This document shows, one piece after another, positions 11,865-13,623 of a DNA stretch of 64,000 nucleotides. The position numbers and the translations under genes were made by a program. Under the pieces are notes generated by a model. It searched no databases, was not told the origin of the DNA, and saw only the letters and a list, made by a program, of their open reading frames with translations. Each line of letters opens with the position of its first letter. Position 1 is the stretch's first letter. Source of the stretch: Actinomycetota bacterium (GTDB taxonomy: Bacteria; Actinomycetota; Actinomycetes; S36-B12; UBA5976); NCBI GenBank assembly GCA_009923495.1, contig RFTJ01000001.1:12879-76878 (forward strand), read 5' to 3'.

Positions 11865-13190
11865 TTAATCTTGCAGCACTGCCGAGAGGTCTCCAATAGG
11901 TTTCTGGGTTGCCTTCAATACCTCTATGACTCTGGCTTGGTCACCAAGTAGCTCGTATCCAGTTACCAAGTTCAGTAGTGCCCGCTTAAATGTTGTAACG
12001 TTTTCTTGAGTTTTCAGGAGCAACCAAGCTTCGTCTAGGTGGTTCTTTGCACTTGATTCGTTTCCATTTTTGGCCAGTATTTTTCCTAGCTGAGTGTGTA
12101 CATGAGCCGAGATGTCTACAGCAACGCCGCCCTGAGCCAGAATCTTGAAATAGATATCCGACGCAGCTGAGTAATCCCCCAGGCGTCCAAGTAGGTCGGC
12201 ATAAACATTTTGTGCATATTGCATCATCACGAAATCAAAACTTGAACTTCTGGCCCTGATTAAGGATTCAATCTCTACTTGCGCGGCGACGAGCCGGGAG
12301 TCGCCATCTGGGGCGCAGTTAACCAGTATTTCCGAATATAGAATTTGTAAAACCAATGCGGGGACTGAATCCATTTCATCGGAAAACAAGGCTCTAGCCT
12401 CCTGGGCTAATCGCGTTGCTTGTTCATAGTCCCCGACTTCATAGGCCAGCGATGCACTAACCCAAAGCGCGCTTCCCCGACCTCTTCTGTCTTTAACTTT
12501 TGGCAATAACTCGTCAATTTCAACCAACAACTTATTTGCTGAGGCAGAATCTCCGAAGGAGAGCAGCCGGTCTGCAATAGCAGCAGTTACTTGGGTTAAA
12601 AGAAGGGGGTCAACGTGTAGGGTCTCTTTGAGTTCACGGCGAATCTGGCTTAGATAAATCGTTGCATCTAGTGCATAATTTAGCCGATCGGATAATCGGC
12701 AATAAAGCATTGCGGCGCGGCGTCCAATTTGCCAATCTTTTGTCCTGAGTGCATCTTCGAGTACACCTTTTATGACCATGTCAGAAGCGACAAAATTACC
12801 AAGTCCATAATCGAGTTCGGCTTGGATTATTCGCCCCTGAAGCGTCTGAAGTGAGTCGTTAGCTACTTCGGCTAACAGGGCTTGAGCTGCCGGAAAATCA
12901 GTCAGCGTCAAAAGCACATCGATCTGAGCTAAAAGAGCGCTCTGTTTTCCATCCAATTTTGGCAACTCCGGCTTGCACAGTTGCGAAACTGCTACGCCAA
13001 GGACTTGAGCTATGTGCGCCAAAGCCTTTTCCGAAGGCATTCGCTTGCCCTGCTCAATGAGCGATATGTATCCAGGGCTAATCAACTCACCGACGAAAGC
13101 TGCCTGCTTCAGACCTCTATCGATTCGTAACTGCCTAATTTGGGCACCCAATTCGACGGGAGAAATTTCTCCTAAAAATTCTTTGGGCAC
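11865..13190 (-). CDS. XRE-family helix-turn-helix transcriptional regulator with long all-helical TPR-like C-terminal domain
   Basis: 441 aa. The N-terminus (LGAQIRQLRIDRGLKQAAFVGELISPGYISLIEQGKRMPSEKALAHIAQVLGV) is a textbook HTH_XRE (Cro/C1) domain. The remaining ~360 aa are Leu/Ala-rich with repeated A..Y....G.Y..A-like helical hairpins (e.g. YEVGDYEQATRLAQEA, LGRLGDYSAASDIYFKI). The start is GTG with no obvious SD, so the transcript may be leaderless. Confidence 0.8.
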   Translation of the reverse strand: MPKEFLGEISPVELGAQIRQLRIDRGLKQAAFVGELISPGYISLIEQGKRMPSEKALAHIAQVLGVAVSQLCKPELPKLDGKQSALLAQIDVLLTLTDFPAAQALLAEVANDSLQTLQGRIIQAELDYGLGNFVASDMVIKGVLEDALRTKDWQIGRRAAMLYCRLSDRLNYALDATIYLSQIRRELKETLHVDPLLLTQVTAAIADRLLSFGDSASANKLLVEIDELLPKVKDRRGRGSALWVSASLAYEVGDYEQATRLAQEARALFSDEMDSVPALVLQILYSEILVNCAPDGDSRLVAAQVEIESLIRARSSSFDFVMMQYAQNVYADLLGRLGDYSAASDIYFKILAQGGVAVDISAHVHTQLGKILAKNGNESSAKNHLDEAWLLLKTQENVTTFKRALLNLVTGYELLGDQARVIEVLKATQKPIGDLSAVLQD

Positions 13191-13210
13191 AACCTGATAT
13201 TACGCCGATT

Positions 13211-13262
13211 GTTACTTTCTTACTGTATTCTCTATTTTTGTAAGATTTCTTACACAAAGTAA
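13211..13262. promoter_or_regulatory. Repeat-rich divergent promoter/operator region between the XRE-TPR regulator and the small peptide gene
   Basis: Direct repeat TTTCTTAC at 13216..13223 and 13246..13253 (30 bp apart). Inverted pair TTACTTT (13212..13218) / AAAGTAA (13256..13262). Inverted pair CTTAC (13219..13223) / GTAAG (13240..13244). The region is AT-rich. Confidence 0.35.
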
Positions 13263-13277
13263 AATTAAGGAAAAACA

Positions 13278-13403
13278 ATGAAACGAACATTCAGGGTTTT
13301 AATAGCACTTAGTTTGGCGCTTGCGCTCAGTGGCACCGGGGCATCGACAGTCAGTGCTGGTCCCAGAATCACACCTTTGAACGTTAACCTAAAGTGCTGC
13401 TAA
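13278..13403 (+). CDS. Small secreted pro-peptide (41 aa), candidate signalling peptide precursor
   Basis: Below the track's size cutoff. ATG 13278 is preceded by AAGGA 8 nt upstream. Translation is MKRTFRVLIALSLALALSGTGASTVSAGPRITPLNVNLKCC, then TAA. It has a positively charged n-region, a 13-aa hydrophobic core and a VSA|G signal-peptidase I site, which would leave the 14-aa tail GPRITPLNVNLKCC. Confidence 0.6.
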   Translation: MKRTFRVLIALSLALALSGTGASTVSAGPRITPLNVNLKCC

Positions 13404-13404
13404 C

Positions 13405-13623
13405 GTGAGCGCCACTGATTTGGACGGATCAGCTGAATATATGCAGTTTCGAATCATTGATCCGTGTGGTCGGGTCATTGCCCAGCGCCGCTGTCCGCAT
13501 TTCAGCGCCGCAATCGAGTGGCTTCAAACAGTGCAAAAGATTAGACACGATCCATTTTTGGAGGTACAGCGCCAAGTTGCAGACACCTGGATTTCACGGT
13601 CTAACCGAAAATTCCACCAATAG
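13405..13623 (+). CDS. Hypothetical small cytoplasmic protein (72 aa), apparently translationally coupled to the pro-peptide gene
   Basis: The GTG lies 1 nt after the TAA of the peptide ORF. An alternative ATG at 13441 would give MQFRIIDPCGRV... There is no signal peptide or TM segment, and I recognised no family. Confidence 0.4.
   Translation: MSATDLDGSAEYMQFRIIDPCGRVIAQRRCPHFSAAIEWLQTVQKIRHDPFLEVQRQVADTWISRSNRKFHQ

Follow-up and report, generated by a model that had tools for sequence, protein, structure and literature searches.

Does an actinobacterial chromosome encode a peptide-receptor signalling pair of the kind described in Bacillota? The question is raised by a 64,000-nucleotide (nt) stretch of contig RFTJ01000001.1 (positions 12,879 to 76,878; hereafter the window), in which a gene for a 441-amino-acid (aa) regulator is divergent from a 41-aa open reading frame (ORF) for a putative exported peptide ending in Cys-Cys, followed by a 72-aa ORF. 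The three genes and two conserved dyads in the intervening spacer exist, and receptor, peptide and dyads are co-conserved over deep divergence. The pair is a well-supported, apparently undescribed candidate for a peptide-receptor signalling family in Actinobacteria, with an invariant vicinal-cysteine peptide. We lean, with somewhat more belief than doubt, towards an autoregulated module that would work like the RRNPP systems of Bacillota. The layout and coordinates of regulator, 87-bp spacer, divergent ORF and following ORF agree with those given by a sequence-only reading of the same DNA:

11865..13190, minus strand: XRE-type helix-turn-helix (HTH) and tetratricopeptide repeat (TPR)-like regulator, candidate cytoplasmic peptide receptor and repressor (GTG start, 441 aa)
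12987..13154, minus strand: Cro/C1-type HTH domain of the regulator (residues 13-68, Pfam coordinates)
11910..12950, minus strand: TPR-like alpha-solenoid of the regulator (residues ~81-427, ~19 helices by the secondary structure of the model)
13191..13277: spacer between regulator and peptide gene (87 bp)
13267..13271, plus strand: Shine-Dalgarno sequence AAGGA of the peptide gene, ending 6 nt before the ATG
13278..13403, plus strand: 41-aa pre-peptide ORF (ATG start, TAA stop)
13278..13358, plus strand: signal-peptide part (residues 1-27), with cleavage predicted between VSA and G by heuristic analysis of n-, h- and c-regions
13359..13403, plus strand: 14-aa tail GPRITPLNVNLKCC and stop codon, candidate signalling peptide or precursor
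13405..13623, plus strand: 72-aa small ORF (GTG start, 1 nt past the TAA stop of the peptide gene)

Conservation of the Cys-Cys peptide beside the regulator

The product of the 41-aa ORF, MKRTFRVLIALSLALALSGTGASTVSAGPRITPLNVNLKCC, has an n-region charge of +3 and a 23-residue uncharged run, and cleavage after VSA fits the -3/-1 rule and leaves 14 aa. A good Shine-Dalgarno sequence, a signal peptide and a 14-aa tail had been assigned to this ORF from the sequence alone, and all three were recovered. In all 17 peptides the n-region carries a net positive charge (+1 to +3), an uncharged stretch spans 12-35 residues, hydrophobicity peaks above 2.2 and sites obey the -3/-1 rule (by heuristic, not SignalP), which is consistent with Sec signals cleaved by signal peptidase I. 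Over all homologous loci the peptide is 39-47 aa long; GGAGG, GAGAGG or GGGAGG occupies the matching Shine-Dalgarno position in homologous loci; the gap to the regulator, 87 bp in the window, is 75-181 bp in the other loci. The ORF had been described as uncalled. It is real, but it is not universally uncalled, its exact sequence being present, unnamed, in public protein collections from 9 contigs. The peptides of Cellulomonas and Actinotalea are called as genes in NCBI genomes and labelled only "hypothetical protein".

Whether a small signal-peptide ORF adjoins orthologous regulators was a test set beforehand, and position, length, signal peptide and Cys-Cys end are all kept at regulator identities of 28-52%. 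Eleven distinct freshwater loci, the window included, contain an intact divergent ORF of exactly 41 codons with a Shine-Dalgarno sequence, a signal-like N-terminus and a C-terminal Cys-Cys. The small residue at position -1 falls in one and the same alignment column throughout the freshwater peptides. In the tails of the 11 intact peptides, conserved ends (P29 in 9/11, [IV]31 in 11/11 and [KR]32 in 10/11; K39 in 8/11, C40 and C41 in 11/11 each) enclose hypervariable positions 33-38. In locus L002, whose regulator is 30% identical to that of the window, the divergent CC peptide ends in ...ASVITPSIFKGGPTNCC. Loci L003 and L007 contain the same peptide gene with a single frameshift and with the ...KCC end readable in the other frame.

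A scan of 211 kb, comprising the window and the loci fetched by then, for ORFs of 25-70 aa with a signal-peptide-like N-terminus and CC within the last six residues found such ORFs only beside the regulator, one per locus and none elsewhere. The pairing spans GC contents of 46-76%. At its upper end stands a clade of Cellulomonas and Actinotalea regulators, 28% identical to that of the window, which sit between holA and rpsT in six distinct loci of 71-76% GC. There, the regulator is preceded on its own strand by a signal-peptide ORF of 41-47 aa that has its CC near the end, with 2-4 residues beyond it (C. bogoriensis, MNRTAKALSAALLALGLAVFAVPAAGGDVETAIGSTGCCKV; Cellulomonas sp. H30R-01, ending in ...DDTVITPFSGGATGCCRQIV). 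No genes other than those for the receptor and the Cys-Cys peptide are co-conserved over both clades and both gene arrangements.

In L023, a single long-read contig of the high-GC clade, the peptide gene is frameshifted. The CC tail is intact in the other frame of all three frameshifted genes (L003 2760-2915, L007 530-705 and L023 2400-2700). These single frameshifts are probably assembly indels in single metagenome contigs, with pseudogenization as the alternative.

The regulator and its family

The canonical Cro/C1 HTH and following TPR-like repeats that the sequence-only reading saw in the 441-aa protein were confirmed by Pfam and by modelling. Residues 13-68 match HTH_31 (E 8e-11), and a weak match to TPR_14 scores above threshold (24.4 bits against a Pfam cut-off of 23.5). 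The AlphaFold2 (AF2) model, computed with 26 homologues as input, has a mean predicted local distance difference test (pLDDT) value of 88 and comprises the HTH followed by a solenoid of ~19 helices, consistent with ~9 TPR-like pairs. All members of an alignment of the two clades (alignment A3, 12/12) match TPR_12, with a best E of 6.6e-15, and homology between the clades spans the full length of the protein. The recognition helix S-x-x-Y-I-S-L-I-E is invariant in freshwater and high-GC clades, the invariant HTH columns being S38, Y41-E46, G48, R50 and P52. The most conserved stretch of the solenoid is the motif R236-G-R238-G-S-x-x-W243. Mean identity is 64% in the HTH and 43% in the TPR domain, as would be expected if the sensor domain diversifies.

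No BTAD, NB-ARC/AAA or LuxR domain was found in the regulator by Pfam; only its TPR part resembles TPR_MalT and MalT domain III. Regulators of the SARP type (OmpR-type winged helix and BTAD) or the MalT type (STAND NTPase and LuxR HTH) were considered and are ruled out by the N-terminal Cro/C1 HTH.

The 26 close homologue clusters of the regulator (38-52% identity) all come from metagenomes or metagenome-assembled genomes labelled Actinobacteria or Actinomycetales, which supports the actinobacterial origin that had been proposed for the locus. A profile search with a mixed alignment retrieved at least 204 wider clusters of full-length homologues of ~440 aa, including Cellulomonas fimi, C. biazotea, C. 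soli, C. bogoriensis and Actinotalea. Homologue lengths range from 418 to 480 aa. An origin from a mobile element was rejected. No relatives were found in 2.9 million viral contigs, and the lone, unverified "phage" record has a truncated homologue and no CC peptide. Distant HTH-TPR homologues of ~410 aa (27% identity) occur on Streptomyces plasmids (S. finlayi NZ_CP045703.1, locus L025; S. parvus NZ_CP135078.1, locus L026), where they diverge from genes for acyl carrier proteins and may regulate the pathways of biosynthetic clusters.

The control region

The spacer had been called repeat-rich, and it contains the direct repeat TTTCTTAC twice together with an 11-nt inverted repeat. Alignment of 12 freshwater spacers delimits a conserved block, TTCTTACA-N3-TGTAAGAA-A-ACTTAC-N5-GTGAGAATA, that comprises two tandem dyads of the form CTYAC-N5-GTAAG. 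The elements of the window spacer are:

13230..13244: candidate operator dyad A, CTCTA-N5-GTAAG (family consensus CTCAC-N5-GTAAG), from the 12-locus spacer alignment
13249..13263: candidate operator dyad B, CTTAC-N5-GTAAA (family consensus CTTAC-N5-GTAAG), from the same alignment
13197..13202, minus strand: predicted -10 box TAATAT of the regulator promoter, 6 nt ahead of the GTG start
13226..13231, plus strand: candidate -10 box TATTCT for the peptide operon (the conserved GAGAATA read on the opposite strand)

Dyad B is the sole match to CTTACN5GTAAG with at most one mismatch in the window. TAAAAT, TAATAT or TATTAT stands at the same place, 6-7 nt before the regulator GTG, in 11 loci (alignment A2), and this short distance points to a leaderless regulator mRNA. 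GAGAATA is nearly invariant in the spacer alignment and reads TATTCTC on the peptide strand. It is plausible that TATTCTC provides the -10 box of the peptide operon, in which case the dyads would lie at and just after the transcription start. A promoter suggested by a consensus scan (TTGTAA-16-TAAAAT, 13238-13265) was rejected; it would place the mRNA start in or after the conserved Shine-Dalgarno sequence and is not conserved elsewhere.

The candidate operator of the high-GC clade is a 17-bp dyad, GTCAY-N7-RTGAC, which precedes the peptide start codon by 41-51 nt in 5/6 distinct loci. In 4 of those 5 a TAGAGT-type -10 box is embedded in a second copy, located 13-22 nt ahead of the regulator start, and a leaderless regulator mRNA is again predicted. 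A third copy occurs ~200 nt upstream of the peptide gene in five high-GC loci. These copies are the only matches within 7-9 kb per locus. The half-sites of the two clades, TTAC (freshwater) and TCAC (high-GC), are related, in keeping with the invariant recognition helix. Because the dyads overlap predicted -10 boxes, the regulator would be a repressor, and it appears to control its own gene and the peptide gene.

The third copies lie at L014 3509, L021 2571, L022 2525 and L024 2485, and also in L015, which is the locus of L014 in a second Cellulomonas assembly. In L014 the third dyad overlaps the start of a divergent gene for an EAL protein (cyclic di-GMP phosphodiesterase), and EAL genes flank the peptide-regulator pair in L014/L015, L022 and L023. 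DNA looping or a link to cyclic di-GMP could account for these positions.

The 72-aa protein

The 72-aa ORF begins with GTG at 13405, 1 nt past the TAA of the peptide gene, as the sequence-only reading had it. The window protein, its relative in L012 and P0126 have in common an N-terminal extension, MSA[AT][ED], which supports this start and translational coupling to the peptide gene; the ORF is probably co-transcribed and translationally coupled with it. The family (60-80 aa) has the core [YF]R[IL][IVL][DN]P..[RSE][VI]...WL...R.D[PS]FL..[QE]......W and is found once per freshwater locus in 13 distinct loci (E 1e-24 to 1e-35, local hidden Markov model). A word-based homologue search with the 72-aa protein retrieved only itself, and an exhaustive HMMER search of 1.84 billion representatives returned 4 real relatives and 2 spurious repeat proteins, the family having just 5 real representatives there. 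There were zero matches in Pfam, NCBIfam, PHROGs and PDB sequences, and Foldseek with a single-sequence AF2 model (pLDDT 70) yielded nothing below E 0.9. The protein has no signal peptide and is predicted to be cytoplasmic.

The proposal that this ORF is the regulated output is supported in part: the ORF is kept only in the freshwater clade and is missing from L002 and from every Cellulomonas-type locus. We read this orphan-family protein as a clade-specific output or partner. L002 (2719-3288) has a secreted protein of 189 aa after the CC peptide in place of a small cytoplasmic one, and in L008 (1-905) the first divergent gene encodes a lipoprotein-like signal-peptide protein; the downstream cargo thus varies between subclades. 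A subgroup of the small proteins ends in CC[AD] (FDCCA, FYCCD; L012 3548-3790 on the minus strand, P0126 and P0130), which echoes the CC of the peptide.

Genomic neighbourhood

A further feature closes the cassette:

13621..13671: stem-loop, possible bidirectional terminator, between the convergent 72-aa ORF and CotH genes

The stem-loop folds as RNA at -21.5 kcal/mol (z-score -2.33) and has no T-run; its assignment as a bidirectional terminator is tentative. An Rfam scan of the locus gave no match. The convergent gene (13669-15564, minus strand) encodes a secreted 631-aa protein with CotH-kinase and lamin-tail domains, and an exporter of 639 aa with ABC_membrane and ABC_tran domains is encoded close to the cassette (18005-19924, minus strand). 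Both recur by the cassette in L012, L013 and L017-L019, not in the high-GC clade, and could be shared synteny or part of a regulon. Further along, 20503-21795 (minus strand) encodes a protein of 430 aa whose collagen triple-helix repeats match Pfam Collagen at E 1.5e-28, on this actinobacterial chromosome.

The window also contains comEA-comEC-holA, rpsT and lepA (43770-50133). Its holA (46071-47093, minus strand) and rpsT (45814-46074, plus strand) are convergent and overlap by 4 nt. The junction that houses the peptide-regulator pair in Cellulomonas and Actinotalea is empty in the window organism, where the pair lies ~32 kb off.

Proposed mechanism

By sequence rules, Sec would export the 41-aa product and signal peptidase I would cut after VSA to free the 14-aa tail, which may be trimmed further past the conserved P-x-[IV]-[KR] motif. 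The peptide would build up extracellularly, be re-imported by an oligopeptide permease (Opp) encoded elsewhere in the genome and dock on the concave face of the TPR solenoid of the regulator, the last two steps being proposed by analogy. The peptide-free regulator would occupy the two tandem CTYAC-N5-GTAAG dyads in the 87-bp spacer. These dyads overlap the core promoter predicted for the peptide operon and are situated directly upstream of the promoter from which the leaderless regulator mRNA would start. Binding of the peptide would alter DNA binding, most likely lifting repression, and derepression would yield more transcript for the peptide and for the 72-aa protein translationally coupled to it, the putative clade-specific output.

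Assessment of the RRNPP-like reading and its alternatives

In silico, an RRNPP system is recognized by five properties (PMC10075063): the pro-peptide is small and is secreted by Sec, the receptor has TPRs and a length of 250-500 aa, and the two genes are direct neighbours. The window locus has four of these properties outright (41 aa, 441 aa, TPRs and an 87-bp gap) and Sec secretion by heuristic only. RRNPP_detector sets limits of 10-100 aa for the pro-peptide, -60 to 400 bp for the receptor-peptide gap and a TPR E below 1e-5 (PMC10075063); the TPR E of the window protein alone, 3.9e-5, lies narrowly outside the last of these. In a Foldseek search against the PDB the RRNPP receptors ComR, Rgg2, PlcR and NprR ranked 4, 7, 13 and 40 (target template-modelling score 0.59 for NprR), and the sequence profile A1 matches NprR (4gpk) at E 4.8e-7. 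RRNPP(A) systems are described as a Bacillota trait (PMC10075063, PMC9765709, PMC12700828), and no actinobacterial system was reported in the literature searched, which ties RRNPP(A) to Bacillota and their mobile elements.

Several observations weigh against this reading. As to homology, the Foldseek matches to RRNPP receptors (E 1e-4 to 1e-3) are interleaved with IFIT5, LGN, APC subunits and MalT domain III; LGN and bacterial kinesin-light-chain-like TPRs slightly outscore NprR in the profile search; and the RRNPP-specific Pfam models fail to match the regulator family. The suggestion of an actinobacterial RRNPP counterpart is therefore upheld in part, by conservation and signature, but homology to RRNPP receptors was not shown by fold or profile, and we file the locus as one that would work like an RRNPP system, leaving membership by homology aside. 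As to the circuit, Pfam scans of 56/57 window ORFs of at least 150 aa that are not nested in a longer opposite-strand ORF detected neither an Opp-type binding protein or permease nor a dedicated protease in the 64-kb window, in agreement with the sequence-only reading; window ORFs 25156..25641 and 58380..59570 gave zero Pfam matches. As to the pairing, no CC-peptide gene lies beside the Streptomyces plasmid homologues, and none was found in L008 (31% identity), which has regulator and operator. Many RRNPP systems are accessory, whereas the high-GC pair forms a syntenic core locus whose peptides differ little from one another, and invariant vicinal cysteines are unusual for RRNPP pheromones and hint at thiol chemistry.

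The variation of the tail also weighs on this side. The regulators of L001 and L017 are 94% identical in protein (25 aa differences) and 95% in DNA, while their tails differ at 6/14 positions and the peptide-gene DNA is just 69-74% identical; spacer and small ORF are 78% and 84% identical, with a break in divergence at the regulator start (L001 1400-3400 compared with L017 5396-7396). The mosaic suggests recombination or faster evolution on the peptide side, and it implies either that recognition tolerates a variable tail centre or that the peptide is not the ligand. Divergence of the tail correlates with that of the TPR domain at 0.46, below the 0.78 of the signal peptide, in a comparison that phylogeny confounds, and L013 and L020 form an incongruent pair whose tails are 71% identical and whose TPR domains are 36% identical.

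A less probable alternative that nonetheless carries appreciable weight is that the regulator represses the peptide operon locally but has a ligand other than the peptide. In that case the Cys-Cys peptide, exported or membrane-tethered, would act outside the cell through its vicinal thiols, in soft-metal binding, redox buffering or sensing, or surface interaction, and the TPR domain would sense a small molecule or a partner such as the 72-aa protein. The two cysteines are the only invariant tail residues, and vicinal cysteines are typical of metal and redox chemistry (MerA, MerT, MerF) and not of RRNPP pheromones; the invariant Cys-Cys may have a redox or metal role. The CC[AD] ends of some small cytoplasmic proteins (P0126, P0130 and L012) hint at a shared thiol function, and L008 and the near-identical regulators with different tails fit this alternative too. 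Proteins are also bound by TPR domains, and the glycine-rich c-region and less canonical cleavage site of the high-GC peptides could make them membrane anchors with a short external tail. In the freshwater clade, however, the conserved small -1 residue in a fixed column favours release over anchoring, and metal-resistance or redox genes are not linked at the examined loci. The peptide gene is moreover the sole partner co-conserved with the receptor down to 28% identity and in two arrangements, and the neighbouring peptide is the simplest ligand for a 360-aa ligand-binding domain, with no other encoded candidate nearby. A bacteriocin or ribosomally synthesized and post-translationally modified peptide (RiPP) precursor, whose production the XRE regulator merely controls, seems very improbable. 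A small cysteine-containing peptide near an exporter with ABC_membrane and ABC_tran domains (18005-19924; also in L010, L013 and L017) would suit it, as would weak sub-threshold NCBIfam matches that include a bacteriocin-family N-terminus and cover only the signal peptide. The mature part, however, is just ~14 aa, the leader is of Sec type rather than a double-glycine or RiPP leader, and the pair has no conserved companion gene for a modification enzyme, a C39 peptidase domain or immunity; its neighbours in Cellulomonas-type loci are housekeeping genes (holA, rpsT, lepA), and no exporter is kept beside it in the high-GC clade.

The idea that only the regulator is real, and that the 41-aa frame stays open by chance within a promoter region, deserves hardly any credence and is refuted by the comparative evidence. 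The ORF is short and has no family annotation in Pfam or NCBIfam, and dS is saturated in most peptide-gene pairs, so that dN/dS (nonsynonymous over synonymous substitution rates) is uninformative, which also takes some weight from the RRNPP-like reading; selection on the peptide gene is drawn instead from the exact upkeep of length, frame and motifs. Despite saturated synonymous divergence all 11 intact freshwater genes have exactly 41 codons, with Shine-Dalgarno sequence, signal-peptide properties and CC terminus conserved; the gene persists over the whole GC range, its signature is unique to regulator-adjacent ORFs in the 211 kb, and it was called independently in NCBI Cellulomonas and Actinotalea genomes.

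Implications

Actinobacterial cell-cell signalling is, in the textbook view, a matter of small molecules such as gamma-butyrolactones. If the RRNPP-like reading is true, RRNPP-type signalling logic reaches a second phylum, with a new peptide class whose hallmark is its vicinal cysteines, and there would be a route to asking whether streamlined freshwater actinobacteria communicate at all. A wider picture, which we hold to be doubtful, is of an old, vertically inherited receptor-pheromone family in Micrococcales-type Actinobacteria with a thiol-state-dependent Cys-Cys pheromone. Such a pheromone would be active, importable or recognisable in one thiol state only (reduced, vicinal disulfide, disulfide-linked dimer or metal-bound) and would tie the sensing of cell density to the redox or metal chemistry outside the cell. 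The freshwater system would drive a new effector protein of 60-80 aa, and the Cellulomonadaceae pair would be a syntenic core locus between holA and rpsT. These ideas are readily testable, both genes being present in cultured relatives that are open to genetic work, such as Cellulomonas fimi.

Comparison with known systems

NprR-NprX of the Bacillus cereus group resembles the window pair in several respects. NprR combines an N-terminal XRE HTH with ~9 TPRs at a similar length, its partner is an adjacent Sec-exported pro-peptide of ~40 aa, and it is the best RRNPP match by sequence profile (4gpk), at a similarity no stronger than that to generic TPR proteins. It differs in belonging to Bacillota rather than Actinomycetota, in having the peptide gene downstream rather than divergent or upstream, in lacking the invariant Cys-Cys and in forming an activator complex, where the operator geometry here suggests a repressor.

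The divergent arrangement is closer to Rgg-SHP (Rgg2/Rgg3) and PrgX-PrgQ, in which the genes share a short control region and receptor-bound operators control the peptide gene. Peptide lifts the repression exerted by Rgg3 and PrgX, which is the mode proposed here. Their receptors (Rgg2/Rgg3 and PrgX) are smaller, ~280-320 aa with 5 TPRs against 441 aa, and the SHP and PrgQ peptides have no Sec signals and are exported via PptAB (PMC10075063), in contrast to the classical signal peptide of the window peptide.

In the AimR-AimP-AimX (arbitrium) system of Bacillus phages an HTH-TPR receptor on a dyad operator is likewise paired with a Sec pro-peptide of ~40 aa, of which the C-terminal part is the signal, and with a small downstream output gene. 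The system is phage-borne rather than chromosomal, AimX stands where the window has a conserved 60-80-aa protein, and AimR activates until the peptide releases it from DNA. PlcR-PapR, like the window pair, is a chromosomal, species-wide HTH-TPR regulator with an adjacent Sec pro-peptide, autoregulation through a palindromic box and a signal formed by the C-terminal part of PapR; PlcR differs in size (285 aa, 5 TPRs) and in being a peptide-dependent activator, and only its HTH aligns by sequence.

Carboxylate-clamp recognition by TPR receptors offers a lead, no more, on how the tail might be bound. Hop TPR1/2A (EEVD) and PEX5 (SKL) are eukaryotic chaperone or import receptors, not transcription factors, and the high-GC CC is followed by 2-4 residues. 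Nonetheless, the K-C-C-COOH end of the freshwater peptides and the invariant basic R236 and R238 of the TPR domain make a recognition mode of this kind possible in the window pair.

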